A stretch of 63,470 nucleotides of DNA, filler included, from Hausera hauseri (Eukaryota), in the NCBI GenBank assembly GCA_046269625.1. It is 12 parts of 12 records of this genome, joined end to end, with 100 filler letters (N's around TTAATTAATTAA, not from the genome) between each part and the next. Parts side by side here need not be neighbours in the genome. Positions count along the whole stretch, not along the records: positions 6,060 to 14,588 come from JBJURY010615442.1; positions 14,689 to 18,987 come from JBJURY010648997.1; positions 19,088 to 23,133 come from JBJURY010795757.1; positions 23,234 to 28,733 come from JBJURY010241294.1; positions 28,834 to 33,459 come from JBJURY010498019.1; positions 33,560 to 38,644 come from JBJURY010340491.1; positions 38,745 to 42,891 come from JBJURY010735433.1; positions 42,992 to 48,554 come from JBJURY010230295.1; 4 more parts are not named here. One strand, written 5' to 3'. Both the position numbers and the translations under genes were made by a program. Below, piece by piece: positions 6,060 to 56,039 of this stretch. Numbering within the stretch: the stretch's first letter is position 1; each line of letters begins with the position of its first letter. The notes beneath the pieces were generated by a model. It was not told where the DNA came from. It made no database searches and saw nothing but the letters and a program-made list of their open reading frames with translations.

Positions 6060-6660
6060 TTAGTAACACCAATTACCAGAGTGTTGTTGGCAAATGCTAC
6101 TCAACCAAAACTTTTAAGAGACTGTAAATCCAGCCTAGGAGAGTCAATGTTCAGACGTAGCGAAACCGACCAGGTAAGTTTACCGAACGGCGGTATTATC
6201 GCACCACATACCAAATTGACAGGAACAAACCAAATAAAAGGAATAACCAATGATAAGTTTCAAGATACAGCCGCAAAAGGTATTTACCGACCAAAAGAAA
6301 TAGAGGCGTTTAGACAATTTCTCGCTTTTCCCCGCCAAGGTACACATGAATTAAACAGAGCGATGCACACAATACTCGGGGACTCACGCTACCAGCCGAA
6401 ATGGAAGTCATTACTTAGTGTTGGCTATTACAAGAAGGTAACTAGAAAAATATTATACAAAATTTGAGGAAGATTCCTGATACTCGGACAAGCCACGTCA
6501 GGATTTCTAGCGATATACTTCTTAGTTCAACTGGCAAAAGCTATAATTCAAGCAATCATAAATGGATACGAGATATTTATCTTGACATGATTTTCGTGCA
6601 AAATTTTAACGGCTATTATTACAACTTTCGGCAAATTCTTAAAGGCTTATGAAGAAAGTA
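6060..6660 (+). pseudogene. C-terminal part and TM region of a chuvirus-type glycoprotein
   Basis: VTPITRVLLANATQ...KI*GRFLILGQATSGFLAIYFLVQLAKAIIQAIINGYEIFILT*FSCKILTAIITTFGKFL matches the W-GxFxxFG..SAG..IK.I...IxGY...G.S C-terminal signature of chuvirus-like glycoproteins. Confidence 0.8.
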
Positions 6661-7339
6661 AATGGAAAACAGATGTGGAACGACATGTGGGCTACCATAA
6701 TCCAAAACGTAAAATACACATTCGATTATAGACAGAAATTTATAGTCAGTAAGACACGAAGAAATGATTCCGATGATGACGAGACTAAGGGAGAAGACAT
6801 CATCCCCAGGCCGAGCAGGCACAAAAATTACTTTGTTATGAAACTACCATTAACAATATTTCCACCAACAGCACCTATATATGAAGATTGCGAGAAACAA
6901 TCTGTGAATTCCTGCCAGACAGACATCTATCGGAAGCCATTTAGTTTAGAAGATCCTTATGAAGGAACAAAACGCTATTGGATATTGCGCAAGATCTACG
7001 AAACACAGAGGACCTTGGCTCCATGCCATAAATTAGCAGTCGCGACAACGGCATAATTTACTCATCTAGAATGCCTAAACCAAACGAAACGCAATCGATA
7101 TTTACTCGAAACTGTGACGCACGAAATCTCCGAAACCAAGATGTTCAGCCGCCGGTTAGGAACCCAAGAGTAGAAAACACGAATGGAACGAATAACGAAC
7201 TACACCCAATCGGAGAGTTAAGACAGTTAGTCGAGCCGCCAGTGGGAACCACTGAAGTCACCATCAACGGCTACAAAGTGTCTACGATACGACAACCCAA
7301 AGTAGCACTAAGCTATTACGGTACAGATATTGAAGGTAG

Positions 7340-10300
7340 GCCCTTCGCAAAATTTCAACTGGACGATTAGAAAGTTTACGCACTAATAAATACAGGATAT
7401 GAAATATCACTGATAAAATATGATTCGATCCCACAATTCCTACGGAAACAATAATATTTACCTCCCATGACAGACCCAGGAAGCATTGGAGCTTTCGGAC
7501 AATCATCGGAAAGTAAATTCCGATGAAAACCAAAATTTTGCATAATGGGATAATATTTCCATCATGAATTTTCAGTAATGGAACAATTAACGGATAATGT
7601 AGTGTTAGGATGTGATCTATTAAGACAATAACCGAATATAGCGATTGATTTCAATGCACGCAAATTGGTAGAACTTGGCCCAATAAAAGGAGTCAAAACA
7701 ACCAAAGATAGGAAATTCGGAGAAGTGTGGATTCCTGTAGACGATAACATACCACCCAGAAGTGAAATATTAATTTACTCTCAAATACGTCAAGATGACA
7801 ATCAGTCAGTATATTTCAAACCAAGAGAATCGCTCGACCCAAACTTCGTGCTCAGCAATATATTGACGAGAGTATCAACAGGTTGTGTACCAATTTGAAT
7901 AGCGAATAATGCGCCCACTCCAACCAAACTGTATGTCAATACCACTCTAGGACACACGTATAGAGAATCATCAATTACCATCAAAAAGAAACCGTATAAG
8001 GTTACTGAATTTCCACCCCATGTCGAAACTAAATTTTCGTCGGAATCCTATTGTCGATTTTACGATTTACTTTGTTGTTATAGTTCGATTATCGCGAAAG
8101 ATGAAAAAGATATTGGCCGAGTCAAAACTCTAAGGCTGACAATTTCACTTAAGAAAAGCCTGGGTCCAACGACTAAATAGATCTTGAGGATTAAAAGATA
8201 CCGAAATGGTATCCTCCTCCACATTCATTAAGGCCAGAGATAACCAAGGAAGTTGAACAAATGTTAAAGGCCGACATAATTAGACCAAGCTACAGATCTT
8301 GGTATTCACCGATACTCATGGTTAAGAAAATGGTACCGCTGAGCACAGATTTTGCATCGATTATCGAGCGTTAAATATGCTCATGCTGAAAAACTCTTTT
8401 CCGTTACCATCGGTAAAGGAGGCTTTTGACAGACTCTCTGGAGCCAAATGGTTCACCACGCTCGATTTACAATCTGGATACTGGCAAGTAGAGATAGAAG
8501 AAGAAGATCGTTACAAAACGGCATCTAAAACACACGACGGTATATACGAATTTAATGTTATGCCATTTGGAATAACTACCGGACTCGCCATCTTTACCCG
8601 CATGATGAACAAGATGCTAATGAGATTAGAACATGTGTTTGCCTATTTGGATGATGTTATGCTTGCGTCAAAAACGAAAGAGAATCATTTAAAAGACACT
8701 GAAGGTACCCTCATGAGACTGGAGCAAGCTGGATTAAAACTGAATTCAAAAAAATGCAAATGGGCCCAAAATGCTGTATCGTACCTGGGACATATAGTTG
8801 GGCAAGGAGAATCGAAACCGAAAAAATCTTTATTAAGTAAGATATCGGATTGCATGTAACCTCAGAATCAGAAGGAATTAAGATATTGGTTGAGATTGTG
8901 TGGATATAATGCTACTTACGTACCTGACAATGCGAAGATAAACGCACCTTTATATCGCTTACTAAAAAAAGGGATCAAATGGAAATGGACCGACATCGAA
9001 CAGAAATCTTTTGACGAAATGAAAAAGCTTCTAACTAGTGAACCTGTTCTAAGATATCCAGACTTTAATTTAACATTCATAATCAAAAAATACGCTAGTA
9101 AGGAAGGTATCGGATACAAACTGCCCCAAAAATGAGAAGACGAGGAATTGGAACACCCGATAACATACGAAAGACGTTCCCTAAAGAAAGCATAGAAGAA
9201 CTATTCTGTTACGGAGTTAAAAACATTAGCGGTAAAAGATGCACTGCGACATTTTAACGTGTACATCTATGGACAAAAGATTATAATCGTTACTGACCAT
9301 ATGGCAGTTACGATCTTAAAGGGTAGAGCGAATAATCCAACCTGTAGACTTAACAGATGGAACAAGGAAATCTCACGTTACAACATTGAATTCCAATACA
9401 AACCCGGAAATAAACATGTAGATGCCGATGCATCATATATACTTAAAACCAAAACAAGTGAAGTCACAGTAATGAAGAAGGCCCACCTTGAGAATTTAGT
9501 GGAGAGGCAAGAGACTCTTGCGCTAGACAAGGTATTAAAAATTTTATTGAGCAAAGAAAAAACAATGTTATACAACAAATTGTCGAGTTTATTGATACTA
9601 ACCAAACACCAAAAGATCATAAGTTACGAAAACACCTACGTCGACATGGTCACAAATGTTACCTTACAGGAGATTTAAATCACGAAAATGTGTTGTACTA
9701 CGAACGAAAAAGACGCAAGATAGTCGCTATACCAAAAGGATTACGAGCAGAAGTGCCCATGGCCGAACATGACTCATACTTAGCCGGACACATGTCATGG
9801 AAAAAGACATTGGAATGACATTAAATAAATACTATTGTCCGAGCATTTACATCTATCTGAGAAATTGAGCAAACGCTTGCGAATTATGCGCAACCAAACA
9901 AAAGAAAGTGAAAAACTACGTCGCCGAGCTTAAACCTATCGACGTGCCCGATAGACCAATGCAAGCAATGTCTATGGATATTGTAGGACCATTGCCTACG
10001 ACCCACAAAAACAACAAATATATTTTCACTTGTGTAGACCCATTAACTCATTTCGTAGCGCTTATAGCGCTATTTGACCAAAAGGTCGAGACCTTGACAG
10101 AAGCCGCAGTTCGGAAAATTATTTACAGATATGGGCCACCCGAACAGATTCTGACAGACCGAGGAAGAAATCTTACAAATGAATTGTTCGACAAAATTAC
10201 CAAAATCTTTGAGATTGAACAACTTACTATTACGGCTTATCAGCCCCAATGTAATGGGATAATCGAGCGGATGAACGCACCATTATACGAATTTTATCGA

Positions 10301-10800
10301 CAGTAATCTCAAAGGACCAGAAAGATTGGAATGAGTTCTTAGAAGGAACACAGTTAGCCATTAATACTACTCCATATCCTGCGACAGGATTCACTCTATT
10401 TTTTATGATGTATGGAAGAGAAGCTGCGCTTCTCACTGATTTAGGACTGATCCCGTACACAACGCAAACAGAAAATTTAGAACAAAACTTCGCCGAGGTA
10501 TTGCAAATAAAGTTACACAAGTGTTGGAAAATAGCCAAAGAGTTGTCTAAAGAATATCAAGAACAATTTAAGAAGCAATACGATAAGAAGGCTAAACCAC
10601 ATGATCTAGAACTCGGAAATTGGTTTTACATACACTACCCAGTTGCAAAGAAAGCACGTGCAGAGGACCTTATGAAGTTACTAAAGTTACACCAACCACA
10701 GTTTATATGAAAAAGAACAGGAAGGAAGAGGTCATATCGATTCAAAGAGTGGTTAAAACGGAGATAAGACCCGCCAAACTTTACAATCTGCGCTGAGCAA
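7340..10800 (+). pseudogene. pol: Decayed pol: protease, RT, RNase H, integrase
   Basis: PR VYALINTGYEIS...VVLGCDLL; RT FCIDYRALN, LDLQSGYWQV, MPFG, FAYLDDV; RH VTDHMAV, YKPGNKHVDADA; IN H-H-C-C, MDIVGPLP, ILTDRGRN, NGIIERMN. Confidence 0.93.
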
Positions 10801-10830
10801 AACAGATAAAAAAAGAAAACGTCAACGATA

Positions 10831-11660
10831 GTGACCAGACCAGTATCATACGTGCAAATAATCCTCGCCTTATCGTTATTCGCTTCATATGTGCCGAAGT
10901 CGATATCGCTAACCGTAACCGAAAAATTACAATATGCGGCAAGACGAAGGGATATCCAAAACATGCAATCACTTATAGTATACGATATGGATTGGAGCAA
11001 ACCATGCGCCTGGTTCAAAGAAAGTGAACACATTTGGAGTTATGTGAAATTTTAAATAATATTTGTAACTGGATCCACGATGAAGAAATGTGATTTATCC
11101 TACGGACATTACGGAAGATGTTGTAATTTGAATTTTGGACAAGACTACGGATACGGATTTCAAATGTTTTTTTCTAATTAGTTTGGAGCTCAAGCCTATA
11201 TAACTAGTGAACTCTCAATAAGAATGCTTCTACGAATGGATGCAAATCAAGCCAAAACGGATAAAATAATTCGAAGCACTGACCCATTTAAAAGTCTTTT
11301 GGACTATAACATTATTGGAATTTAAAAGGACTTGAAAAACCGATGTATTTGCATTAAAACCAAGGTGGAACTGCCCGGAGACAGACAAATTTCCGTCCGA
11401 TTCATACCATTGAATGCTTCCATTCCTAAACCGGAGTATTGTTATTTGGCCAGACGACGACCTACTGTGTGTTGTGTATTGCAATTAGGACAGGAGTATC
11501 AGTTGCAATTCGACTTGTATAATACGTTCTCCGGAATGCAAAGTACCTATTTACGAGGATATTGCCCAAAAACGGAAAATGGAGGCTTCCGTTTCCAACC
11601 ACTACGGGAAGACCATCCACAGCTCCGAGTACAACTCACACTACTACCGAAGGGAGAAAA
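10831..11660 (+). pseudogene. Post-integrase signal-peptide-like segment and Cys-rich putative ectodomain
   Basis: YVQIILALSLFASYVPKSIS followed by a Cys pattern conserved with 40330-41050 (IRST..., CI...K..LP..R.IS..F, YC...CC...FDLY). Confidence 0.55.
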
Positions 11661-12289
11661 ATGGGTAAACGGGCACCGAAACTGACTTTATGATAGCATA
11701 ACCTGACTATTACAGATTGGGTTATGCTATCATCAGACAGAGAAAATTCTTTGTTTCAAAACGATAATCTGTTTTAGGTTTAACCTTTATTTCTATTTTA
11801 GCAGAGAACTCAACAATCAGTGCCAATTTCGACATCGATGACATTTTACAGCAGCACGTCACTGTCCCCAAACCACTATCCAAAGTGACTAAAATTGGGT
11901 TTAGAAGAGAATCGACTAGTTCGATTATATGCCATGAGAAACCTAAAGGATGCACGGGAATACTTTTATGAGATATGATCCCATATGAGCCGACACATCA
12001 GCAATTGTACCTACATGTTGCTGATGGAGAAATTCAATACAGAATCGTAGGACAATCCTGGAATACGCAAAAAGTGTAGCAGTGAAAATGTAGTACTTAT
12101 GAGCTATTTTGCTATAGCCTCATTAATTATACTCTGGAATTCAGGATTGCGGACTTTCCGACAAAAACCATGATCGAAATGACGTGGCGAACAGAGGTAA
12201 TGAAGCCACGCCCACCGTTACTATATGTACAGAAACCATCGGAAGATGAAATAAAGCAAAATAGGGAATCTTATATATTAGTCCCAGAT

Positions 12290-12640
12290 GGCCGAAATAC
12301 CCGGATATTATCCGTAAATTATGGAGAAAAGGATGACGGATGGTATAGTCCGATGGAAGTCACTATCAGAAATACTAATGGAGAAGAGGTTGTAAATAAA
12401 ACAATCGCACCTCGAGCTAGGATAAAGGACACTTTTCCCGACGTTACAGGAATTACGAAAGTACAGCTTGAGAAAGGAAAGGACTTCTTGGAAATCCAAG
12501 AAGACATAAGTTATTGCTTATATGGATATATTGTTACCGGATTCCAAGTGCATGAAACATTGGAGCGACTAGGAATCAGACAAGAGTACATAGCCGGAAT
12601 TTGAAAATTCAGCCGGAACCCATCCGTAGTGAGTCAAGTG
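12290..12640 (+). pseudogene. REX4/ISG20-like DEDDh exonuclease-fold domain with a degenerate ExoI motif
   Basis: EVTIRNTNGEEVVNKTIAPRARIKDTFPDVTGITKVQLEKGKDFLEIQEDISYCLYGYIVTGFQV follows the REX4 pattern VSIVN..G..V....V.P...V.DY.T.VSGI....L..A..F..VQ.EV..LL.G.ILVGH; AxDCE is replaced by SVNYGE. Confidence 0.65.
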
Positions 12641-13635
12641 GAAAATACCTTGATGCGGAAAAGAGGCTGCCTGCTTCAGTTAGCATCGCGTAAATCGCAA
12701 TTTAAGATGATGTTAGAAGCTATGAATCGTGAACGATCCAAATCCCTAAGCGGACGATAGCAACTCAACGGACCAAATTTATAAAAGATATTTATTACTC
12801 GTTACGATGGGATCACGTGTGGCAACCCAGAAATTACATGCAAAATACGATATCCGAAAACAACAGCAAGAACCTAATACAAAAATTCCGAAAATGATTT
12901 AGTGAATACCCGAGTTATCAGGAAGTAGTACCCCAAGAACCTAACCGATTTCGAGTGACAGTTCAGAATAATCCAGTAGAAGTCCGTAACATCCAACAGA
13001 AACCATCGACCAGTCAATCTCAAAAAGAAATGACAGTGAAACCAAATAACCCTGACAACTCAAGAAGGAAAAAGACAAAGATTTCCTTTCTGGAATACAT
13101 TAGTAAGAAAAAGAGCAAACCGTGTAAAAACCAAACAGACAAAAATAAACCAGAAGCCAACAGCCCAATTCAGAAAGAACAGAAAAGCGATCAAAAGGAA
13201 ATATCGAACAAACGAGGAACAACAGAAAAAAATGAAAATCAGTTAAGAACTACCAAAACCGGATCGTTTAATACAGAAATTAACGTTCTTCGGAAAAATT
13301 GGGAGGAAGATACCCCAATTATCGTTACAGAATTCGGTCAAGTGAAAGAATATAAAAGACTCCTTGTCATGGCCGAATACTATAGCAAAGGAAAAATCTA
13401 ACAATTGCCGTAGATACCCAAGTTAGAATTCAGCTAAAAAGACAATACAAGAAAACTGGAGTACCTGATTTGGATAAACAAGACATAGTCAAAACGACCC
13501 TGTTTACGGTTTCCGACGATCCCAAATCAAAAGAGGTTATATGGATACTTATACCAAGACATGAAGGGACTGATATTTGAGAGAATAAAAGTGGACGAAA
13601 ACCTTGAGGACATTGATGCAGCTGAAAAAGACGAA

Positions 13636-13770
13636 TGTCCCGTTTGCAATGCGGATCTCTATCAGGGACTCATAGTATTGGACAACAAAGATTGCAGTCA
13701 CAAATATTTCCGCTACTGCTTAGAAACGTAGACCCTGAAAAATGGAAAAACGACCTGCCCAGTATGTAGA
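13636..13770 (+). pseudogene. RING finger domain
   Basis: CPVC-x15-CSHKYFRYCLET*TLKNGKTTCPVCR; TAG at the conserved Trp position and Phe at one ligand position; same frame as ORF 13822-14007. Confidence 0.8.
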
Positions 13771-13962
13771 ACCAAAGCTACCAGACTAAGATACTACTCA
13801 AAGGGAGAAAATAAGAAGATAGTGTCGGTACTACCCGAACAGGCCACGACGTCCTATTATCTTGACTTACAATCGCCATCGAACGAATCAGAATCAGAAG
13901 CGGACTTACGAGTACAAACAAACCGATTACGCAGCACCTCTACTGATGCAGTGGGCATATCC

Positions 13963-13973
13963 GAGAGGAAAAA
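13963..13973 (+). promoter_or_regulatory. Polypurine tract
   Basis: GAGAGGAAAAA directly before TGTTGTAAAA. Confidence 0.6.
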
Positions 13974-14573
13974 TGTTGTAAAATGGGCGCAAACTGTAAA
14001 TTTGTAAATAGTGTATCAAGCGAAACTGAAAAATGAAACCGAAAGTGAAACCGAAACTAAGTATCTGACACTAAAAATTGAAAACGAAAGAATTGTTATT
14101 ACCCAGAATTAATTAACCAGAGAATTGTAGTGATTATGTAAATATGAAAATAGTTTATTGGAAAAGAAAATACTTGTTTATTGTACGAAAGTTTCGGAAA
14201 ATTAATTGTAAATAATAAAATGTGAATTTATGCATGAAATTGCTTATGACTGCCGACTATATAAGGCAGTACAAAATCAATCAAAACGAATAAGTTAGAA
14301 TATAGTTTGTATTAGTCAAGCTGTTGGAAAAGCTCAGATATTAGGCGATTATTTGAAACTATTAAAACGATTTTCAGTTGCCAAACTCGCAGAGAAGTTC
14401 GAGTTATCAAATATTCCTTGAAAAAGGTTCAGTTAATACGTTGATCTTGGAACGATTTGTAGAAAATTTCCGATGACTGTATCGTCTGGTATATTGTTTT
14501 ATTTGTCAATAAATTTGCATTGTAAAATTCTCTTATAGTTTTCCGTAGCGCCTTACGAGGGACTTATACTACA
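13974..14573 (+). repeat. Putative 3' LTR, 600 bp
   Basis: TG...CA ends with an imperfect inverted repeat (TGTTGTAAAA / TTATACTACA), TATATAA at 14258, AATAAA at 14508, preceded by the PPT. No second LTR copy in the window to confirm it. Confidence 0.65.
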
Positions 14574-15499
14574 TTAAGGATTAAAATCNNNNNNNNNNNN
14601 NNNNNNNNNNNNNNNNNNNNNNNNNNNNNNNNTTAATTAATTAANNNNNNNNNNNNNNNNNNNNNNNNNNNNNNNNNNNNNNNNNNNNTTATTGCACACC
14701 CTGAAATACGTCTCGTTTTTCATCCCTATACTACTTACGTTTGATCCTTGCCATAATAGGAGTGTTACATGTTTTTCAATGTTTCAATCAGGCGATTTAA
14801 TAGTGGGCTGTTTTTTGTAGAGAAGAACATAATTATTCTTACATTAATTCAGTATATATGTTATGTCAGAGGTTCAGTACTTGTCTTTCACACCGGACAA
14901 CCATAGAGACGAGGGGTTAAACCATGGGTATGTCTGTACTGAGGACACTCGATTTTCGCCAGTGATTTGAACAAACAAACAAAAGTCCTGTGTCAGCAGG
15001 GTAGATATGACGAAACACCAGACGGGCGATAAACTTTAAGGCTAAATGTGAACATTTCGTGCAGTAAAGATCCCACGCAGTTGGAATCGAAATATAGTAG
15101 TTCAGACATGATATACTGAAATAGTAGATCTCAAAGTGGCTTGAGAAATTATATTACATCCTCAAAGTGGCGTAAGATATAGTTTAATGTAGCTAGCAAC
15201 ACTATAGTAATTGGAACCGTGCTACGAGATTTATAGAAGTAACAAGACAGATTAGAAATTTGCAGAACGAGGAATACGTAAATGAGAAGGCGAGGAAACA
15301 TGGAATTAACTTTTTAAAGATGTTTCCAGTAACTGTGTACAGTTTAGGAAATATATTCCATTTAAATGTCATTTTTAAAGGCACGTTTTTTTTTTTTTAA
15401 ATTTATTTTTTTATTGAAATAATAGTTATGTAATTTGTTTTGTATAAATTTAGTAGTTAATTGTTAGGTAATAGGGGTTTTGTGTTATGTCTTTGTTGT

Positions 15500-17439: not shown

Positions 17440-17860
17440 TTCTTAACGGGATACGTTTTCCACTATACGAACATGACGTTCGCACTAAAAGTCTAACTCG
17501 TCCGTCGTTACAGGACGACATTTTCCACTAAAAGTCCAACTCATCCGTCGTTACAGGACGACATTTTCCACTATATGGACACGAAGTCCGTCATTTATGT
17601 ATACAATTATATAGTGTAACGATAAGACTTTTTCAATAAAATGCCGACCTGTCCGTCGTTACAGTGCGACATTTTTAACTAAAAGTCCAATTCGCCCGTC
17701 GTTACCTGGCGACATTTTCCACTATACGGGCACGAAATCCGTCATTTATGTTTACAATTATATAGTGTAACGACAAGACTTTTTCACTAAAAGGCCACGA
17801 TACCCGTCATTAAAGCGAGGACTTTTACACTAAAAGACCATCATGGCCGTCGTTAACGGA
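17440..17860. repeat. Tandem array of ~40-bp units (TCCGTCGTTACAGGACGACATTTTCCACTA) nested in a ~150-bp period
   Basis: Near-identical blocks at 17532-17650 and 17682-17800. Confidence 0.85.
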
Positions 17861-17899
17861 CACAAACAAGCGGTTGTTACAACCGACATCTTTGTTGTC

Positions 17900-38744: not shown

Positions 38745-41700
38745 TACGTATATGGGCAGAAAATTATCATTGTCACCGATTATAAAGCCGTCACAACTTT
38801 GAAAGGCCGCGAAAATAACCCAACATGTAGGCTTAACAGAGGGATTGAAGAAATTTCTAGATATAATATCGAATTTCAATATAAGCCAGGAAATAAACAT
38901 ATAGATGCCACTGCCTTATCAAGATTAAGGACTAAAACAAGTGCGATTACAATAATGAAGAAAAGTCAGCTGGAAGAAATAATTCATCGCCAACGCGCCT
39001 TGACGATGGATAAAGCAATCAGAATCTCAACGGAACAAAAAAGGATGAAGTTATCCAGCAGATTGTAGAATTTGCCAAAAAGAATATCATACCCAAAGGA
39101 TGACAGTTAAAGAAACATTTATACATTCATGGACACAAATATTGCGTCATGAACAGTAAGGGCGATGAGGATATTTTATATTACGAACAAAAAGGAAAGA
39201 AATTAATAGTTATCCCAAAGAATTTACAAACCGAAGTGTTAACTTCAGAACATGATTTATATTTGGCCGGACATATGTCCTGGAAGAAAACATTAGAAAG
39301 AGTAATGAATAAATATTTTTTGTCTAGTATCTACATTGATGTAAAAAATTGGGTAAATGCCTGCGAAGTATGTGCAACTAAACAAAAGAAGACGAAAAAT
39401 TATATGGCAGAATTAAAACCAATTTATGTGCCCTGTAGACCTGTGCAGTCCATGCCTATGGACATTTTAGGACCCCTTCCTACAACTCACAAGAACAATA
39501 AATACATCTTAACCTGTATCGATCGATTAACTCATTTTGTTGAATTGATAGCATTAATTGATCAGAAGGCGGAAACCTTAGCAGAAGCCGTAGTAAGAAA
39601 AATTATTTGTCGATACGGACCTCCAGACCAAATACTCACCGATAGAGGAAGAAATTTCACCAGCGAACTATTCGAGAAAATCACCAAAATTTTCAAAGTC
39701 GAACGACTAACAACTACCGCATATCATCCTCAGTGCAACGGAATGGTCGAACAAATGAATGCCACCGTCATACGCATATTATCAACAGTAGTTATCAAAA
39801 GGATTGGGACGAGTTTTTAGAGGGGACAATTTTCAATTAACACCACACTACATCCATCAATAGGATTCACTCCATTTTTCATGATGTATGGACGTGAAGC
39901 CTCATTACACACGGACTTAGGAATGACGCCATACAAGGTTAATCCTGAATAATTAGAACAAAACTTCGCAGAAGTCTTACAAACGCGGTTGCGGAAATGT
40001 TGGGAAATCGCAAAAGAATTATCCCAAGAATACCAAGTGCAGTTTAAAAAGCAATATGATAAGAAAGCAAAACCGCATGATATAGAACAATGGAACTGGG
40101 TTTATGTGCATTACCAAGTAGCTAAAAAGGCTACTTCATTAAAGTTGACCCGCACGGGTAGAGGACCGTACAAAGTTACCAGGGTGACGCCAACAGCAGT
40201 ATATATTAACAAAAATGGAAAAGATGAAGTTGTGTCAATACAAAGAGTTGTTAAGACGGAGATACGACCCAATAAACGTTACAAACTACGTCCGCATGAA
40301 ATAAAAACTTTGTCAATAATTGCTAGACCAATATCGTACGTTCAAATAGTTTTGGCATTATGAGTAATTGCTTCCTATATTCCAAGAACACAAGCTGAAT
40401 GGAGGCATGAAAAACATATAATAAAGGTAAAGCGGAAAAGACACCGAAGGTCGAAGAAAGTCAAAGATTATTACAATCAATTCAGATCGTCTTAGATGAG
40501 ATGATGACCAAAGAAACAAGGAATTGCGATTTCGAACCGAGAGATTATATGCAATTTTGTGACATAGACTTCGGACAAATTTACAACCTCACTTATCAAT
40601 TATACCTGCCATGCTTATATAAGATCTATGAAATAAAACCGCAATTTCAATTAGTCATTACGGCGAGGAATAAACATCATGGAATAAAGCTTGACTACGT
40701 GATACGATCTACTAATCCGGACATTAAGTTCTTAGACGAAAATATACAGAAAATTGTTGTGAATCAGGGAAAACAATGTATTCAGGTATATGCCAGGAAA
40801 GATCTACCCATCAATCGAGAAATCAGCATCACGTTTGAGTCGGAAATTGGACCAACTCTAAGAATAAAATATTGTGCTATTCGCGCTGCTATGTAACATA
40901 CGTGTTGTAATATACCCGTAAACGAAAGATTCAAAATAAGATTTGACTTATATAAAATACGACCTAACCAATCAAGTATACAATTACGAATTTACTATAC
41001 AGAAAGTAAAATCTGGAAAATATTAATAGAAACCACGACTAAGAACACACCTAAAGCAGAGTTAAGAGAAATACCCATCAAATTTTCGGCTCACCGATAT
41101 AAAATCGTGTTCTTTGTGGAAGAGAAACAACCATACGATATACACATAAGTTGTCGGACAACATATAATAATAAAATTGTAAAAATAAACAAAAACACAT
41201 CAAACAGAGTGAAATTTATTACAACCAAAATCCGCGTACATAGTACAAGTGCATGAGCAGGACAAACAAACTCAAACGATGACACTGCACACCTTATACG
41301 AAATTTATGCAAAAATACATACACAAGAAAATGCAGGCGAAGAGACTACGACGACGATTGTTACTCAAGCACAGTTAGGACTAACCACATTACCAATCAT
41401 ATCGATTACGGTACTATCAACGTTTGTTCTCATTATATTAATTGCGATTTTACGATTAGTCGCCAAAAATTGTTGTTCTAAGCGCCCTAAAAATTCAGAA
41501 TGGGAACTAAGGGAACCGGGAGACCCTATTGATCCATATGACAAAATAACCTGCCAGTTACAGAACGGGTTATTCTGCCATTTGATAAAAAATTGGTTTA
41601 ATTTTAAAAATGACCTTTATTTTAAGAATAATTCATATTATTTATTCCTCAAAATCGAAAACAGTGGAATGTCCGAACAAAGTAGAATCGAAGAACGAGA

Positions 41701-42891
41701 AGGAGGAAACAGTTCCACCTTTCGAGTTAGTGTCGACGAATTTTTTCAGTGCTATGCTACTGTCCTCCTTATAAATTCAAATTCGATTTATCGAGAAATA
41801 CATAACAAGCTGCATGGAAGGGCCATCATAAAATACGACCAGGTCCACGCCATACCCAATAACTTAAAAAGAACGACCGAGGAAGATAGAATCGTCTATC
41901 TCTACGCTATGAGGGAAGATCGTGATGTGAGAGCATATTCGCTTAGATATTTAATAAATTTCGAAATCGGTCAAGATGTGTACATTTATTTAGCAGATGG
42001 TGAGATTTATTACAGATTACAAAGTCAAGAATGGATTACACAAAAAGGAAGACAGTACAGGTTTAGCATCCTAAAGATTCGAGGCGAAGACTTTCAAGGT
42101 AAGGAATTGGAATTCAGAGTCGCTGCTATTCAAGTCAAAATAATGATTGAAGTAACAAAAGAGGAAAAGAGAAAAAACATGTTACCACCCCTAGAATTTC
42201 GGCATAGACCTTTAGAAGCGGAAGTAATAAAATCCTTGTACTCCTATAGATTGGTACCCCACACTAGGAACACTAAAATTATTGCTGTGAGCTGTGGTGA
42301 AGGAAATGAAGCAGACAAAATTCCGATGGAAATTTCAATCAGGGAAACAGACGGAACGGAATTATATCGTACAATAATTAGCCCGAGAAAACGGATCAGA
42401 GAGACTTTCTTTAACCAAACAGAAATCCGTAAAGAAAACTTGAAAAAAGGAAAAGATATCAAGAAGGTACAAAATGAACTGGCCCATTGTTTACATGGTT
42501 GTATCCTTATCGGGTATCGAATAGAAGAAATTATATCATTGCTAGAAATTCTTTATTGAGGAATAGCAGGAATAAGAGAACTTAATACGCATCCACTTAT
42601 CGCCGAGAAAACAAAAAATTATTACGAGATAGAAACTACCCGATGCCAAGAATTATGGACGCTTAATTTAAAATAATGACAGAAGCAACAATCAATAGTC
42701 GGACTAAAATTAGCAAAATGTTGACAGCATGTCAACGTACTCAATACCTGCGAGATACTTACGCCGGATTATCCTGGGAACAAAAATGGGTACCCAAAAA
42801 CCCCGAGTATAACTTAATTCGTGCCGCAAACCCAAATCAAACTGATGCGAAATATCGTAAACAATATCAACCCTACAAAACATTCGAAACT
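38745..42891 (+). mobile_element. Large Gypsy-type element, copy B (RH end - IN - ectodomain - TM - exonuclease-like)
   Basis: IN HDLYLAGH...CEVC, MDILGPLP, ILTDRGRNFTS, NGMVE, GRGPYKV; then ISYVQIVLAL*VIASY; TM ITVLSTFVLIILIAILRLV; exonuclease-like domain at 42270-42600. Confidence 0.9.
41249..42559 (+). pseudogene. 436-codon open segment: Thr-rich stalk, TM helix, unknown domain, DEDDh-like domain
   Basis: EETTTTIVT...PIISITVLSTFVLIILIAILRLVAKNCC...IIAVSCGEG...EISIRETDGTELYRTIISPRKRIRETFFNQTEIRKENLKKG...LHGCILIGYRI. Confidence 0.7.
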
Positions 42892-44260: not shown

Positions 44261-44279
44261 GTCAGGCCATTTTGTCGAA

Positions 44280-47200: not shown

Positions 47201-48554
47201 AGGAGCATTTGTTGAAATTAATTTCCAAATTGTTTTGGTGCAAGCGCTGGAAGATTAGACGTAAGTGTTTGGAGTGCTGTTTCGAGGAAGATGATGCAAT
47301 TAGGATATCATCAATATAGAAGTAGGCAAAGTCTAAGCCTAATAGGACTGTATTAATATGCCTTTGGAAGGTCTGGAAAGTGCTACGGAGTCCAAGAGGC
47401 ATGAAGAGGTATTCGAAAAGGCCGGAAGGTGTAATGACAGCCGTTTTCGGAATGTCTGCTGGGGCCACCGGAATTTGGTGGTATGCTTTGTGCAAATCAA
47501 TGCAAGAAAACATGGCGGAACCATGGAGCCTGTGAAGGATGTCGTTGATTAATCGCAGAGGTTAGGCATCCATTATTGTTATAGTGTCGAATTCGCGGTA
47601 ATCACCGCATGGGCGAAAGTTACCATCTTTTTTGGAACCATATGTAGTGGTGAAAACCAAGGGGATTTGGATCTTCTGATTATTCCTGATTTTACCAGTT
47701 CGAGAAACTCAGCCTCCACTGCCTGTCTGCGGCGAGGCGACTGTGGGCGGACGTTTTTGACGTATTGGTCTTTGATATGCTGTTACTATGTGATAGAAGG
47801 TGGATTTAGGTGGTACGAATGAATTGTCCTTTTGTGACAAACGAGTGCAGGAAGGCGAAACATTGCTGTATGTCAGAGGGCAAAGATGAAAAGTTTTCAG
47901 ATGGTCTCGATGCATCGTGAATGGATGCAGTTGAAGTATGAGTTGTAGACGAGGTGTTGTGACAAAGTGGTATTAGGTGCAGGATGTTTGTGTTGAAGAT
48001 AGTGTTGGCAAATGTACTATCAGTAATGAGTGCCACGCAGTTGGTAATATCGTATTTGTCACCGTAATAAAAATTTCAAAATAATGAGTGAGTATAAAAA
48101 TAATTCAAATCGAGAGTCATTTTTTTCAGTAATGACTTCCTGGCAGCGGTCATCCGGGCGGTCACCGAAATTCTGTTAATTTTATTATTATTTCCATTCT
48201 TTAAGGAACATCGTTTGCAGTCCACAAGTAAATAATAGTGGGACAGAAAGTCTGAACCGAATATAGGTGTGCGTACATTGGCTACTGTGAATTTTCAGGT
48301 GAATGTGTTTGTGAAATTTGGTAGGGTAAAAGTTAATTTAGTAATACCAAAACTTTGTAAAGATTCACCGGACGCAGCGACTAGTTGATGTTAAAAGCAA
48401 AATTGTTTTGGATGTTCTGTATTGGTGGTAGTAAAGAGACTGCTGCGCCGGTGTCTATGAGCAAATTAATGTTTTGCTTTATTGGAGTGACGACTGCTGC
48501 TTTCAACGTGAATACAGCAAAAGAAATGTGTCGGCCAGCTTTTTTAGATTGTTG
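44280..48554 (-). mobile_element. CsRN1-clade Gypsy, copy 2 (PR-RT-RH-IN, S/T/P-rich tail, PPT at 44409-44413, LTR starting at 44404)
   Basis: LLIDTGAAVS, FRPCGDYR, IDLHKAYHQIP, FYIDDIL, TFDRELLA, HIELVGPLP, SDQGPQFES, NGLLERFHR. Confidence 0.88.
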
Positions 48555-51409
48555 NNNNNNNNNNNNNNNNNNNNNNNNNNNNNNNNNNNNNNNNNNNNTT
48601 AATTAATTAANNNNNNNNNNNNNNNNNNNNNNNNNNNNNNNNNNNNNNNNNNNNGTGTTATACCGTAAGATTTCCTCAATCCATTTGTCAAGTCTCCATG
48701 TCGTATTATTCGCTTGTCTTTTCAAGGTTGTAACAGCCTTGTGATCGGTAATAATTTTAATTTTCTGTCCGTAAACGTAAATGTTAAAATATTGTATTAT
48801 TTCTTTTACCGCTTATGTTTCTAGTTCTCTCACTGCATAATTCTTTTCGGCCTTCTTTAGTGATCGTCCTCCATAAGTGATCGTATGCTGTAATTCTTCA
48901 CCATCCAGTTTTTGGACTACTTCATAGCCAATTCCTTCTTTACTAGCGTCAATTTTAATTATGAATGGCAGACTAAAATCAGGGTACCTCAAGACTGAAA
49001 ACTTGTTTAAAATTTCTCCATTTCATTAAGTCTTCTGTTCGACACCTGCCATTTCCACTTAATTCCCGTTTTGAGTAGACAATACAAGGGTGCGTTTATT
49101 TCCGAATCTCCTGGCATAATATCATGATATCTGGCATAATATAAGTGGTATAATATCCGCATAAGCCTAATTAATGTCTCAGCTCTTCTTGGTTTTGTGG
49201 TTCATATAATCTGATATCTTATTTAATAATGATTTATCAGGTTTGGTTCCTGCTTCTCCAACTAAATGTTCGAGATAGGATACTGCGTTCTGAGCCCATT
49301 TATATTTAGAATTTAGCTTTAATCCAGCTTGTTCCAATCTCATGAGTGTACCTTCAATGTCCCTTAAATGTCCGTCTACCGTTTTCGACGCAATAAAGAC
49401 GTCGTTCAAATAGGCGAACGCGTGCTCTAGTCCCATTAGCATTTTGTTCATCATCCGGGTAAAGATGCCTGGTCCGGCAGTTATCCCAAATGGCATAACA
49501 TTAAATTCGTATATACCGCCGTGTGTCTTAAAGGCTGTCTTGTAGAGATCTTCCTCTTCTATCTCTACTTGCCAATATCCAGGTTGTAGATCGAGCGTGG
49601 TAAACCATTTAGCTCCCGAAACTCTGTCCAAAAATTCCTTTACTGATGGTAACGGAAAAGAGTCCTTCATCATAAGTGTATTTAATGCTCGATAATCGAT
49701 ACAAAACCGGTGTTTACTGGTGCCTTTCTTCTTAACCATAAGTATAGGCAAGTACCAAGGTCAGTAGATTGGTCTAATTATGTCGGCCCTTAACATCCGT
49801 TCAAGTTTCTTAGTTATCTCTGGCCTTAGCGAATGTGGAGGCGGATACCATTTCGGCATCTTTTGATCCTCTACGTCTATTTCGTCGTTCAATCCAGGCT
49901 TTTTCTTAAGCTGAATCGTGAGCTTTAAAGTTTCGGCTCGGCCAATATCTTCTTCGTCTCTCGCGATAATTAAACTATAACGACAGAGCAATTCGTAAAA
50001 TCGACAATATGATTCTAGTGAAAACTTAGTCTTCACGTGGGGCGGAAATTCGGCACTCTTATATGGTTTCTCTTCGACAGTGATTGACGATACTGTACAT
50101 GTGTGTCCCAAAGTGGTAATGGGGTACAATTTAATCGGGTTTGGTGCATTATTGGCTATTCTGATTGGCACACGGCCTGTCGATACTCTTGACAAAATAT
50201 TACTGAGTACGAGGTTTGGGTCGAGTGATTGTTTTGGTTTGAAATATACTGGCTGATCGTCATCTTGACGTATCTAAACATATATTAGGATTTCTGTTCT
50301 GGGTGGTATGGTTTCATCCACTGGAATCCACACTTCTCCAAATTTTGTATCTTTCGTGGTTTTAACACTTTTATTTGGCCAAATTCTATCAACTTGCCTG
50401 CATTGAAATCGATTGCTATATTGGGTAATTATCTCAGTAAGTCACATCCTAACACTACATCATCTGTTAATTGCTCAATTACCGAGAATTCATGACGAAA
50501 AGATTGTATCATTATGTGGATTTGTGGTTTCTATTGGAATTTACTTTTTGAGGATTGTCCGAAAGCTCCGATGCTTCCTGGGTCGGTCGTAGGAGGTGGA
50601 TATAATTGTTTTTGTAAGAATTGCTGTATCGAATCATATTTTATCAGTGATATTTCAGATCATGTATCTATTAGTGCATAAACTTCCCAATCTTTCAGTT
50701 GAATCTTTGCGAAGGACCTGCCTTTAATTACTGTACCGTAATAGTTGGGTGCTATCTTGGGTTGTCGTATGGTAGACACTTTGTAACCGTTGATGGTAAC
50801 TTCAGTGGTTCCAACTGGCTGTTCGACTAATTGTCTTAACTCTCCAATTGGGTATAATGCGTTATTCGTTTCATTCGCGTTTTCTACTCGATGGTTTCTA
50901 ACTGGCGGCTGAATATCTGAGGTTCGAAGATTTCGTGCTTTATGGCTTCGAGTAAATATCGATCGCATTTCGTTTGCCTTAGGTATTATGGGCGAGTAAA
51001 TTATACCGTGGTCGTTGACTGCTGATCTATGGTGTGGAGCCAAGGTTTTCTCTGTTTTGTGAATCTCACGCAATATCTCATAGCGTTTTGTTCCTTCGTA
51101 AGGGTCCTCTAAACTAAACAGCTTCCGATAGATGTCTGTCTGGCATGAACTTATAGAATGTTTCTCGCAATTTTCATATATAGGCGCCGTTGGCGGCAAT
51201 ATTGATAATAGTAGTTTCATAACAGAGTAATTTTTGTGCCTGCTCGGCCTAAAGAGGACGTCTCCTCCCTTAGGCTCTTCATCATCCGAATGATTTCTTT
51301 GTGTCTTAGCATTTATAAATTTTTGCCTGTAGTCGAATATACCTCTGTTTCGTTTTCGATTATGGTAACCAACATGTCGTTCTACATTTGCCTTCCATTT
51401 ACTCTCTTT

Positions 51410-53125
51410 ATAAGCCTTTAAAAACTTGCCGAGAGTAGTGATAATAGCCGTTAAAGTTTTGCACGAAAATCCTGTCAAGGTAAATATCTTATATCCATTT
51501 ATGATTGCCTGAATTATAGCTTTTACCAGTTGATTTTAAAAATATATCGCTAGAAATCCTGACGCGGCTTGTCCGAATATTAGGAATCTTCCCCAAATTG
51601 TATACAATATTTCTGTAGTTACCTTCTTATAATAGCCAACATTAAGTAAAAACTCCCATTTCGCCTGGTGGCGCGAGTCCTCTAATATTGTATGTATTGC
51701 TCTGTTTAATTCATGATTACGTTAACGGGGAAAAGCGAGAAATTGTCTAAACGCCGTTCGGTAGACTTACCCAGTCGGTCTCGCTCAGTCTAAACATTGG
51801 CTCTCCTAAGCTAGTTTTGCAATAGCTCAAAATTGTCGGTTGAGTAGCGTTTGCCAACAACACTCTGGTAATCGGTGTTACTAATCTGGGTACGTCCTGA
51901 TATATCATTGGAAGTTCTTGTATACACCTGTTCTCTTTCACGTTGATTGGTACGTCTTTCTTCTCACACTCATACGTCAATAAAACTTCTCCAGTTACTC
52001 GTCCAAAACACCTTCCTTCATCGGAATTATTGGTGATGCCAACTCAGGATTTGCATATATCAGAGCTAGTTTAGTTTTCATAATTTCCAAGTCCAATTTA
52101 AATTCGTTTGTTATCATCTTGTGGTATAACTCGGCTATTCCGGCTTGTCCTTTATAGTAGAAGTAGTCGTCTTTGTTCTTTAAGTAGTCTTTAATCCGGA
52201 TTTCCTGAGTCTCGAGTTTGTACGTTCTGGCATTTATTTCTGCCTCGGCTACGAAAAATGCTTCGTAGTTGGTGGCATACATTATGACGTCACATCTGCT
52301 GAGCATTGCTTTCATCACAAATTTTAATCCATGAGTATCAGAAATCAGTATAGTAGATGTGGACTGTTCGGCTACATCTTCTCGTGTCTTAGAGTTAGTT
52401 TCTATACTACTTATGTATCGTTTGCCTGTCGTCTCATTAAATTTAAGCTCTTTAATTCTGATAAAGCTGCAATCAGTCTTTGTTGGAGGTTCCCAAATTA
52501 CTACAGAACTTCAAAACGGGCATGCGCCATCCTGAATGTGACACTTGTGATTCTCGGTGTAAAATTTAGTAACACTATGAAACATCACTTTCTGTATACG
52601 CATTTCGGTTTCGTAAAAATCCACTACCACGACGTTTGATTTTGATCCCTTTCCGGTATCGTATTCCGCACCATAACAATGTCCGGCGTGCATGTCCAGC
52701 CTTCCTGCTGCTATTTTATACATTCCGATTATACTCCCTTGTTGCATTTCCAGTTCCATACCGTCCCTTTTTATTCTCCCCGTTTCTCTAGCTTGCTTAC
52801 AATGCTGACGTTCTAAATTTATTGGAATTAGTGGAGTTGTCGGCTTGATTATTGACGATTGTCCATATACCAGTCCACAATGGAAAATGCTGCGAGAACG
52901 CGGCAACATACATTCTACTCCATCGAAGGTAACTAGGTCGCCTTGTTGATATAATACATAAATTTTTTCTTTTGTTTCTAATCTGTGCGGCCTCGCATCT
53001 TTGCACATTTTTAAGTCCATTAACGAATATTTTTTGCCCAATCTAAATTTGTCACAGTCGTATACTGTAACTGCGCCCATTTGTCTTATCAACATCATCA
53101 TGGTCAGAAAGTTTATTAGCCTGTT
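51410..53125 (-). pseudogene. Chuvirus-type (class III-like) envelope glycoprotein with an internal signal peptide and C-terminal TM
   Basis: RLINFLTMMMLIRQMGA|VTVYDC...YSLMDLKMC...VEC...IFHCG...C...TG...AAG...HCYGAEY...NVVVV...C....GAC...W...C...GEVLLTYEC...CIQELP...PITRVL...IWGRFLIFGQAASGFLAIY...IINGY; Cys spacing and motifs match chuvirus G. Confidence 0.85.
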
Positions 53126-53825
53126 CGAATCGTTTCCTCTGCGATTTCCAGTAACATCTCGCAGCAGATATCCGAATCTGTTGTTATCAAAGAAGAATCT
53201 ATTGTGATGCTCTTCTTTTTCAAATAGCTTTGTCCAGTCTACTTCTCGGGCAGTTTCCTGGCAGCCTTCCTTGCCAAGCTAGTAACCTTGTTAAATTCAT
53301 TTTCTCGATTCGGATCGGTTTTGATGGCCAAATATAGCAACACTTTTCTCAGTTCCTCTATGGTATTTTCTACCATCATTTTATCGCTTAAAGTACTTTT
53401 GGTTGATTTACACCAAAGGTTCTTCATGGCCTTTGCGGCGTTCGCTATGGCCTTCTCTTTCTCGTCTAATATATCACCACCGAGATTAGAGTGGTTTACT
53501 ATTCGTATCAAATTTGTTATAAGTTCGTTCAGGTCCTCATTATTCGCATTAAAGTTTGGTATGAACATCTGCTTCAATTCCCTAATTAAATCTCCATTAT
53601 AATCGATCTCTTCCCGCATTTTCCGTGGTCGACCGACAGGACGCTTTTGTTTTGTTATAGCAGGTACACGGCCATGGGGGGTACTAAATTTTTATCGTAT
53701 TGTTCATTATCTTCGTCTGTCTACAGGTATTCTAAATATACTGCAGCATCTCGGACCCCTATTATTCGTCCTACTTGTTGTTCGGCTTTAGCCTTCCTTA
53801 TAGCTTTATCCTTAGTCTCGTTGAT

Positions 53826-54050
53826 AGTAATGGTTACCGTGACCCGGTTCACCTTGCCTGGAATAATTCCGACTTCTATTAATAATTCCGTCTCATCTAG
53901 TATCCTTCCTCGGAAATAAAGTCTATAGCTCAGCTCATGGGCGTATCCGTTATTCTTTATCTACAGTAATACATCCTTTGCAAGGGAGCGCGTAGTAAAC
54001 TCTTGTTTCTTCTTGTCCATCCAGTTTGATGCTATTTTTACTGGAATCGT
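53826..54050 (-). other. Ubiquitin-like domain (one in-frame TAG)
   Basis: IPVKIASNWMDKKKQEFTTRSLAKDVLL*IKNNGYAHELSYRLYFRGRILDETELLIEVGIIPGKVNRVTVTI fits the Ubl RLIFxGKxLxDxxxLxxxGI motif. Confidence 0.6.
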
Positions 54051-56039
54051 CTCTTCTGCTTTTGATTTTAGGATTTTGGCATATTCTTTGAGTAAAAGCT
54101 TAGGTGCTGTACTAAGGATCGTACCTTCGCTAGCTAATTTAGTTAGAGTGGGGACTAACCGTCTTAATTGACTTTCAGTGAGATTTACCTCGATCAACTG
54201 AGTTAAATCTTTCTCGGTTTATGCTGGGTCCAAAATCATTCCTACATCGAACCTTTTGTACGGAGAATACATCTCCANNNNNNNNNNNNNNNNNNNNNNN
54301 NNNNNNNNNNNNNNNNNNNNNTTAATTAATTAANNNNNNNNNNNNNNNNNNNNNNNNNNNNNNNNNNNNNNNNNNNNTTGTAAAACGTCCCTGAACTATA
54401 ATATAAAAACAAAGAACGACCCAGCAGAAACAGTTTTTACGAATGAATTGTCTGATTTATTAGATAAATTATTTCCTGATGACTCAGTCGATAATTCTTA
54501 TGATTCAGGTGAAGTTCAGACATTACCGAATCCTTTGGCATATGGTAATTACTGGCAACATCCATTGATCACGCCAGTTACCGAGATTCTGGATCACCAT
54601 TCTGATTCACAAGATCTCAAAATATTGCTAGAATTTGAGTAAAGAAGCCATGCATATTGAATAAATTAAAGCTTACTACCGCTTCCAGGTTTTCAACCGC
54701 GACACACACACAATACATAACAGGGGGAATTACATGTAGGATTGAAATTTGTTGGTAATACAAATGAAAGAAAACGATAATGTGTGTCTTTCACTCCGTG
54801 TGTTTTTCTGTGCCGTTCTCGCGATTTCTTCTTGGATAATGGCTATAGAAGTCGCGATGTGGTGTCTGATTTCTGTGCAACGTCACCAAATGGCTAAACC
54901 ATTACATTCAAATTTCAGTAAATGTTGTCGCATCCTTCTCACTGATGTATTCACTATATTAGCGTGATATCGTTGTTATAACACCGTATCACTGAGCAGT
55001 TAATTCTTGTGCATGAGCTTTGAAAGTCCTAAGAAGAACTGCGGCAGACATAGCTGAGCTTTCCTGCCATCTCAGTGGTGCCTAGGAGGTGAACCGAGGT
55101 CCTCCTAGTGGCTATGCCTTTCTCGGCTTCCTAGAAGCGATCCAACACTCAACTCAACAGGGGATAATCTCCAGCCACCCCCCGTTAGCCCGTAGAATTC
55201 CATTTCGTTGCCTAGGAAACACGACGATGACGGGCGAAGGTCTTCGCTGACTTTTGAGCTGTCTTCCCTAAGTTATCGCTGTGTAATAGGGTCAGCTAGA
55301 AGCCGGCGAGGGCCCTTATTGCATCTCTGTCTCCTGTCGACTGTGTAAAATTACTACACTTTAGAGATTATTTCAAGTAATACAATTTGTATGTGTGTGC
55401 GGCAACACATTTTAAAAATTTATAGACATATAAAGGGTCAACATGTAGAGAGACTAAAACTTTCTTGTAAATTGTTGTACCTGCATTTGTAAGAGCTATG
55501 TCACTATCGTTAAAAACCACTGTTTTAATAGCCTTTGTGGTGTGACGGGTATGAATGATTTTTATGCTTTGGTTGTTAGTACTGAAAAAAGGAAGGTAAC
55601 GTAAACGTTGTGCTTAGGACAGAAGATGGCCATAACTATTGGGAGCCATCTCTAGCCACAACTGGCTGGTAGATTCCCCATTGCCTGTGAGTCATCACGG
55701 GAAGGATGGCAGTGGTCTTATCTGACCATAGGGTGTCATGCTCAGAGCCTTCACAGCCCCACAGGCTCCCACGAGATTGGTAAAATTAAATAAAAAACGA
55801 ACAGTGATTGTTGCAAAGAAATAAAATAAACAAAAGCAAAGAAACCCAAATAATGTTTTATATTAGATACATCGAAGTAATTATGGTGATTTTAAAGATG
55901 ACTGTGTTTTACCTGTCAGTGATGATTTAGCTTTTATAATGATATTATATGTAATTACATCTTATATAATTTAGGTTTTTCATTATCATACCGCTAAAGA
56001 GATAATAAATGATTTATATAAATTTTACACGTTATTCAT

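Follow-up and report, generated by a model that had tools for sequence, protein, structure and literature searches.

How often can a single retroelement polyprotein enter the endoplasmic reticulum (ER), and where does its reading frame end? The question is raised by a 63,470-nucleotide stretch of Hausera hauseri DNA (assembly GCA_046269625.1; hereafter the window), in which three broken pieces of Ty3/Gypsy-type long terminal repeat (LTR) retroelements, copies A, B and C, overlap in homology. An earlier note had tiled these copies into one element and had taken its ancestor to be a single membrane-threaded polyprotein that included every module; the tile measures ∼11 kb from a ubiquitin-like (Ubl) module to an LTR candidate. 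Our reading, to which we give a probability of about 0.7, is that A, B and C belong to a decayed, high-copy, Burro-like Ty3/Gypsy lineage whose intact relatives encode Gag, a fusion glycoprotein (G), Pol and a predicted fibronectin type III (FN3) protein in one frame, in a chain likely threaded into the ER twice and likely cut by signal peptidase and the protease (PR).

The window is composed of 12 unlinked contigs of 4.0–8.5 kb and the 11 artificial spacers between them (5960–6059 to 59006–59105), each spacer consisting of two blocks of 44 N around 12 bp that carry stops in every frame. Copies A (6060–14588, plus strand), B (38745–42891, plus strand) and C (48655–54277, minus strand) occupy one whole contig apiece, and because each fills its own contig, no linkage among them is shown. 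DNA identity is 79–84% between A and C and 68% between A and B, so the tile mixes different families. The homology overlap behind the tile is real, but the three are decayed elements of related families and not copies of one. Copy A is part of a large family, with 13,012 contigs of run X1 aligning to it at a level of at least 85% and all 30 bins covered.

One reading frame and its published counterparts

The layout is most directly visible in intact relatives. A query with the stretch of C from the tail of G to the protease matched 42 proteins among 1.84 billion, and G and protease lie in a single chain in nine of the 13 matches scanned. Four proteins of 2,627–4,844 amino acids (P0001, P0002, P0043 and P0046) each contain G, PR, reverse transcriptase (RT), ribonuclease H (RH) and integrase (IN), an order also found in two metagenome loci, L001 and L002. 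In L002, one open reading frame (ORF) of 3,703 amino acids has a Gag-type beginning that includes two zinc knuckles and finishes with a transmembrane segment (TM2); the ORF of L001 comprises 3,426 amino acids, with its 5′ end open. A search with the G of L002 gave 11 proteins of 2,296–4,057 amino acids, including P0001 and the L002 protein already counted, and RT and IN are present in nine of the 11.

In the window, the same modules are distributed over the three copies. Copy A (6063..10793, plus strand) contains the end of G with a first transmembrane segment (TM1), a linker, PR, a spacer, RT, RH and IN, located by tblastn of intact relatives, by RVT_1 and RNase H matches and by IN motifs. 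Copy B (38745..40390, plus strand) starts with the end of RH, followed by IN (Integrase_H2C2, expect value E = 1e-15; rve, E = 1e-13) and, by hydropathy, a second signal peptide in the IN frame. Copy C contributes protease, a dUTPase-like spacer, RT and RNase H (48657..50719, minus strand; RVT_1, E = 1.5e-25; RT_RNaseH, E = 5e-26) before it is cut by the contig end. The copies have the order PR-RT-RH-IN, an HHCC zinc domain, a DDE core and a GPY/F motif, as a Ty3/Gypsy Pol does. The families found (retropepsin, RT_RNaseH, Integrase_H2C2 and rve, with the GPY motif) include none of the Pao-specific kind that would mark a BEL/Pao-type Gag-Pol. The PR-RT spacer is conserved, under selection and alignable to relatives, with no dUTPase match in Pfam. 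By eye, two small domains might have TFIIS-N-like and PUR-like folds.

All three copies are interrupted. The frame path of C covers 1,875 codons in eight frame segments and meets 12 stops; that of A covers 2,526 codons in 13 segments, with 27 stops, and that of B 1,352 codons in five segments, with seven stops. A few of these interruptions are border artifacts or the natural end. The earlier note described stops that are sense codons in another copy, and this is borne out: of the 964 codons aligned between A and C, only one, inside PR, is a stop position in both, and of the 769 aligned between A and B, none is. Among the 40 difference rows listed of 895 for run X1, four fall in stops of A, each differing in >99% of the depth, and length differences lie near seven frame changes of A, including the break between IN and signal 2. 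In all modules compared in the correct frame, mismatches peak at the third codon position, also in the TM1-PR linkers (0.15/0.13/0.21 by codon position, a weak bias), signal 2 (0.36/0.07/0.57, a strong bias) and the dead exonuclease described below. The breaks in the window copies are decay, not design. Relatives directly show Gag through IN as one ORF that includes env in frame, and for the window the same is seen through private breaks and codon bias; comparison of these sequences establishes the domain order, the single frame and selection for coding.

These observations also bear on whether G and what follows IN arrived as nested or passenger insertions, or whether the tile is an artifact of unrelated elements joined. 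The tile does combine different families from unlinked contigs. However, G and PR are contiguous in A and C, as are IN, signal 2 and the ectodomain in A and B, substitution bias of the coding type continues across the junctions, and the same order recurs in many intact relatives. Such an origin is therefore very improbable; for G and the FN3 module, intact single ORFs already refute nested insertion, which the earlier note named as grounds for abandoning its proposal.

A and C are sister to the G-bearing relatives, with support of 0.949 in an RT tree of 93 of 136 sequences (many plant, pseudoscorpion and other redundant rows having been dropped). In an RT+RH tree of 32 sequences with a fixed outgroup, the Shimodaira-Hasegawa-like approximate likelihood ratio test (SH-aLRT) gave 96 and the ultrafast bootstrap (UFBoot) 87. 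RT-RH matches at 62–79% identity are environmental or labeled as metagenome-assembled genomes (MAGs), and eukaryote-named matches reach at most 53%. Among metagenome contigs, the RT of C gave 36 pattern matches, none of which was confirmed. Two clade members, P0002 (HBK71150.1) and P0142, are deposited under bacterial MAGs and likely reflect eukaryotic contamination of bins.

The earlier note recognized this organization in no described family. Up to IN, the layout has already been published, as Burro/GYPSM1 (PMC6431247) and as GAG-ENV-POL errantiviruses (PMC13524379), a precedent of the kind that the note itself had said would count against it. The accessible text of PMC6431247 describes Burro1/GYPSM1, a giant gypsy-like element of planarians, as a 4,873-amino-acid ORF with Gag, Ubi2/SUMO-like and BCL2 domains, env, PR, a dUTPase-like domain, RT, RH and IN; its mononegavirus-like env, in frame between gag and pol, is termed the first such case. 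Shared with that description are, in relatives, the giant ORF, Gag zinc knuckles, BCL2-like cargo and in-frame env, together with a Ubl module ahead of env, common to C and relatives, for which Pfam support is weak; a PR-RT spacer takes the place of the dUTPase-like domain. In contrast, the same portion of PMC6431247 makes no mention of FN3, of an exonuclease or of a second membrane protein following IN, and gives Burro a length of 25–30 kb against the ∼11 kb of the tile. The MATH, BIR and ankyrin domains reported there had no match in the window pieces scanned, the 5′ part lying outside the window. By analogy with Burro, compared by description, the elements would work in the same way.

In the searched text of PMC13524379, 'ancient errantiviruses' of Platyhelminthes, Bryozoa and Nematoda combine a GAG-ENV-POL order in Ty3/gypsy elements with an ENV of the HSV (herpes simplex virus)/gB type. 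They resemble the window elements in their Ty3/gypsy Pol and in a gB/chuvirus-like env ahead of pol. They differ in that the text nowhere uses the terms 'fused', 'in-frame', 'single ORF', 'fibronectin' or 'Burro' and discusses, as post-IN domains, chromodomains only. It also cites nematode endogenous retroviruses (NERV), of the metavirus type, with an RNA-virus env between gag and pol. Anakin elements of mosquitoes, according to the part of PMC7642597 available, are likewise LTR elements with a captured chuvirus-like glycoprotein, but of the BEL/Pao group, in contrast to the Gypsy-type Pol preceded by G found here. Cer1 is a single-ORF Gypsy element whose polyprotein appears cleaved (PMC3315495, available portion). 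In the present elements, env lies between gag and pol: G precedes PR in A and C, and relatives have the order Gag-G-Pol. NERV, in the account of Sacco et al. from 2022, reportedly has a continuous gag-env-pro-pol ORF and is said to be restricted to nematodes; we know of no FN3 module in it.

Two predicted ER entries

The part of the chain that goes beyond these precedents follows IN. By hydropathy and inspection by eye, 18 of 21 clade members with IN have a signal-like stretch, an ectodomain and a transmembrane segment after it; one of the remaining three ends after the ectodomain and two have neither. Ectodomains of the relatives mostly comprise one to three repeats of ∼90 residues. Repeat profile and hydropathy place three FN3-like repeats, a Thr-rich stalk and TM2 in copy B (40453..41461, plus strand), with TM2 at 41390–41461 (hydropathy 2.98, at 41405) and the third repeat matching the profile on both sides of a frame change near 41215. 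Copy A (10816..11690, plus strand) has a second signal peptide (hydropathy 1.87 at 10843), two FN3-like repeats and a Thr-rich stretch, as indicated by hydropathy, the repeat profile and A-B codon-position bias. TM2 was not found in A, where the Thr-rich stretch (11568–11690) peaks at −0.49 and the other segments scanned after signal 2 reach at most 1.15.

A profile of 22 repeats scores 14.5 bits on the B ectodomain (0 of 300 shuffles) and 7.7 on that of A (2 of 300), and at most 3.1 on four control stretches. Pfam FN3 matches none of the ectodomains. For the second repeat of L002, the predicted structure has a pLDDT of 85–94, all 50 top structural matches are of FN3 type and the best gives Z = 10.2 with a root-mean-square deviation of 2.4 over 83 residues. 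This ectodomain model is reliable for the second repeat only, its first half being unreliable, with a wrong alignment there. An FN3 fold is likely, though not certain, for A and B, because position and repeat profile point to it together. The region was earlier called a 'Cys-rich domain', a label that gives way to an array of FN3 repeats on the strength of the fold predicted for a relative and a weak profile link to A and B. In three relatives (P0055, P0056 and P0087), a short Cys-rich domain, seen by eye, does replace FN3 between signal 2 and TM2, with PPxY in the tails; the slot would thus be swappable.

The 18 relatives with TM2 end in Val in 13 cases and in [ST]x[VIL] in 10, compared with 8 and 3 of 113 other RT proteins. 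We take the latter pattern to be a class I PDZ ligand. The post-IN FN3-TM protein is undescribed in the literature searched, although a description may exist in Repbase, in subscription-only articles, in figures or in the supplementary material of Grohme; it and the pseudonuclease-RING described below are possibly new parts.

The front of the chain is preserved only in copy C. PF24664 (Monjiviricetes_fusion) matches G in three pieces (E = 7.6e-23, 2e-5 and 1.1e-14), so that this chuvirus/gB-type (class III) glycoprotein, with its membrane-proximal and TM region, occupies 51419..53062 (minus strand). This is the class of env reported for the GAG-ENV-POL errantiviruses. It is interrupted by stops and two frame changes, is 26–39% identical to its relatives and has its third piece in frame with a weak protease match (RVP, E = 0.018). 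Sequence comparison of G with the Protein Data Bank gave nothing real, none of 1,965 candidates passed when its ectodomain was compared with longer proteins, and neither viral contigs (25 matches) nor prokaryote genomes (12 matches) yielded anything with the G alignment. Immediately ahead of the conserved start of G, hydropathy indicates an internal signal-peptide-like stretch (signal 1; 53054..53119, minus strand) with a short hydrophobic core, and most relatives have a hydrophobic peak at the matching place.

Gag is absent from the window, the contig of C ending first; intact relatives carry it upstream, as judged from zinc knuckles or Retrotrans_gag. Between Gag and env lies cargo. A helical bundle and Ubl module (53831..54215, minus strand) has phmmer matches in the pre-G regions of eight of 16 relatives, and a profile built from those eight, chosen from the phmmer matches, scores only this interval (E = 1.4e-12). 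The same module in L002 gives a weak ubiquitin/SUMO-like Pfam score (E = 0.02–0.08). It is followed by an AT-hook-like basic motif (53634–53620) and a helical domain (together 53245..53634, minus strand), in the slot of the Bcl-2-like domain of relatives and Burro. The helical domain has no convincing match in Pfam or Atlas (one-sequence profile, E = 0.04). Its position would suit a Bcl-2 identity, which none of these comparisons shows. Cargo in relatives includes a Bcl-2-like domain in P0006 (E = 0.00096) and ankyrin in P0043.

In the scheme we favor, Gag and cargo would fold in the cytosol, and signal 1 would send G into the ER and then be cleaved. TM1 would bring the chain back to the cytosol; Pol would be made as the tail of Env and carried by it to budding sites, and PR would free RT, RH and IN. 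Signal 2 would send the FN3 repeats into the ER, where TM2 would anchor them, and the PDZ-type end motif of many relatives may place the FN3 protein at polarized membranes. The FN3 protein of A's family, having no TM2, would be secreted. Class III fusion proteins often need an attachment partner, and since these are the relatives of G, the FN3 protein would most likely be its attachment or cell-contact partner. Herpesviruses and paramyxoviruses separate attachment from fusion. Elements with env in the polyprotein are known already, and a conserved membrane protein after IN suggests the same separation here.

Several points weigh against this scheme. Signal and TM calls are predictions from hydropathy, made partly by eye in relatives, and in C the hydropathy of both signal 1 (1.34) and TM1 (1.6) is only moderate. 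TM2 is missing in three of 21 relatives. The direct hhalign link of A and B to FN3 is weak (probability 2.3%; score 15.0, with shuffles reaching up to 11.6), and the 7.7 bits of A are few. The PDZ-motif count is not independent, as the relatives share ancestry. A and C stop at the same PR codon, though with different triplets. Finally, relatives are 22–48% identical per piece, the window lineage sits on a long branch and no intact member of it was seen. Dead and fragmentary, the window copies are a poor model; their value lies in extending the layout to a divergent lineage.

The frame could also be single while Env, the FN3 protein and the accessory ORF came mainly from spliced or internally started messages, double threading being a minor route. 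By established retrovirus biology, it would be unusual for one chain to supply Gag, Env and Pol in equal amounts, and a candidate splice acceptor lies ahead of the accessory ORF of A. However, in every intact relative both signals are internal to the ORF and have cytosolic domains fused upstream of them. L001 also has a third signal-ectodomain-TM cassette (∼4750–5320) between two protease copies of its polyprotein, with which the chain would enter the ER three times. We regard a mainly subgenomic origin as rather unlikely. Protease-like copies number two to seven per polyprotein in P0004, P0043, P0051–P0055, L001 and L002, some of them after IN.

The end of the frame and the exonuclease-RING region

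In all 18 relatives with TM2, the ORF ends soon after it. In both relatives with DNA context (L001 and L002), an ORF of its own encodes the exonuclease, whose closest match is ISG20L2 (E = 8e-8), and no RING was matched. In copy A, stops in all three frames are followed by a stretch of ∼100 bp conserved as DNA (together 11666..11800, plus strand; A-B similarity and run X1), all three frames being closed within 11666–11706. Across 11540–11930 (263 run X1 contigs), one of six A stops differs in 98% of depth; the other five have no majority difference and no majority length difference listed, and each frame keeps a stop. This comparison pools several subfamilies, and a missing row is not proof of identity; the three-frame closure is apparently family-wide.

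The stretch behind the stops is conserved between A and B at the DNA level rather than in its protein sequence (similarity 99.5; shuffles reach at most 54) and ends in a pyrimidine run and AG, a candidate splice acceptor or other cis element. At 11722–11777, run X1 depth peaks at ∼55,000 against a few hundred in the flanks (∼100×); this interval is a short DNA element present in many more sequences than the element body.

The accessory ORF of A (11838..14007, plus strand), broken and delineated by alignment to B and to L001/L002, comprises an N-terminal domain, a dead ISG20/REX4-like DEDDh fold, a low-complexity linker and a RING (13630–13770; zf-RING_2, E = 2.7e-5), with a frame change and stops between exonuclease and RING. 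It is 38–39% identical to B in amino acids, with third-position bias. Copy B has a cytosolic tail, a linker and the dead DEDDh fold (41462..42891, plus strand; tblastn of the L001 exonuclease ORF, E = 1.2e-5), its contig ending before any RING; an Atlas match to RNase_T (0.79) is a lead only. Catalytic D, E, D, D and H are largely kept in L001 and L002. Copies A and B alike have other residues at the first Asp, at motif II and, by eye, at motif III, so that neither has the residues of an active DEDDh exonuclease. The DEDDh-like assignment of the earlier note thus holds for the fold and fails for the catalytic residues. Since these residues are lost while 39% identity and third-position bias are kept, the sequences identify the A/B exonuclease as a maintained pseudonuclease.

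Does the B frame nevertheless continue from TM2 into the exonuclease? One alternative is that the ancestor of all three copies was one polyprotein through DEDDh and RING, a membrane-anchored pseudonuclease-ligase, and that A's family broke the fusion when it lost TM2. B is open from 41213 to 42556 over TM2, linker and exonuclease. A stop-free 39-codon linker arises in 2.5% of shuffles (a chance of 0.025 before the right frame is required), so that the open frame, being unlikely by chance, argues against an exonuclease that is always separate and counts against the scheme favored here. The A-B alignment also crosses the stop of A at 12895, where B has none, and the accessible text of PMC6431247 allows that accessory ORFs of Burro may instead be subdomains of the polyprotein. 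Against a continuous ancestor stand the separate ORFs of both relatives with DNA, the 18 frames that close after TM2 and the three-frame closure of A. The linker, moreover, is kept as DNA with many single-base gaps and weakly as protein, and B has a Met at 41669, near the ORF start of L001. B is a single decayed copy, and RING and TM2 are never found on the same contig. We consider a continuous ancestor unlikely.

The claim of a single polyprotein is therefore supported from G through TM2 by intact relatives and fails for the extension into DEDDh and RING: the exonuclease is encoded separately in L001/L002 and lies behind the stops of A, and only in B is the frame open between TM2 and exonuclease. 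Of the module order in the earlier note, Pfam confirms G, PR (by a weak match), RT, RH, IN and RING. As one element, the tiled order does not hold: TM2 is confined to B, and RING and the candidates for polypurine tract and LTR come from A alone, which makes the tile a composite drawn from two families. The second module appears remodeled in the window, with TM2 lost in A and a possible fusion in B.

In the favored scheme, the exonuclease-RING would normally be a separate accessory ORF. In this lineage, its dead nuclease fold likely serves to guide a ubiquitin ligase to nucleic acid, plausibly against host silencing; in B, the exonuclease may be fused to TM2. A dead exonuclease with a RING is thus a candidate counter-silencing device. 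The literature searched contains no description of a dead exonuclease-RING ORF. The nearest counterpart is ORF3 of the rotifer LTR elements Juno and Vesta (PMC5408684, available portion), also a DnaQ-type exonuclease in a separate accessory ORF after pol, but of the DEDDy type, whereas the present one is ISG20/REX4-like DEDDh, no longer has the catalytic residues in either A or B, and precedes a RING in A.

A bolder and more tentative proposal, which we hold to be somewhat unlikely, is a two-glycoprotein system. A class III fusogen and a conserved, receptor-mimicking FN3 protein with a PDZ-type tail would be released from one ER-threaded chain, and in B's family the chain would run on into a dead nuclease anchored in the membrane, with a RING if B is like A, that would ubiquitylate silencing complexes of the host. 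The literature searched describes no LTR element that has a dedicated attachment protein of this type.

Copy A ends in a candidate polypurine tract, a purine run at 13963..13973 (plus strand), and a candidate 3′ LTR at 13974..14573 (plus strand; TG...CA, with AATAAA at 14214 and 14508). Both features of the earlier note thus persist as candidates, but the LTR has no confirming second copy in the window or in the L001/L002 loci, and no LTR-sized direct repeats occur in A, L001 or L002, whose contigs are short.

Other contents of the window

Two contigs (1–5959 and 54378–59005) have CpG observed/expected ratios of 0.70 and 0.64, against 0.99–1.21 in the other ten, and probably derive from a second organism; they contain a Gypsy gag-protease ORF (2879–3, weak protease match) and, by eye, RTE-like remains of long interspersed nuclear elements (LINEs). 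A glycogen debranching enzyme with three Pfam domains (34227–37346, minus strand) has an uninterrupted frame of 1,039 codons, which points to an intron-poor host. A second Gypsy family, without an evident env, is present at 19088–23133, 42992–48554 and 59106–63470 (minus strand), with 63–66% identity across the three contigs; its CHCC-type Gag knuckle is of a kind known from the CsRn1 clade. A broken integrase, a DNA-polymerase-B-like ORF and other ORFs at 23234–33459 look Polinton/Maverick-like by eye. Finally, 15481–18696 comprises repeats of 43–151 bp, both tandem and dispersed, with strong strand skew.

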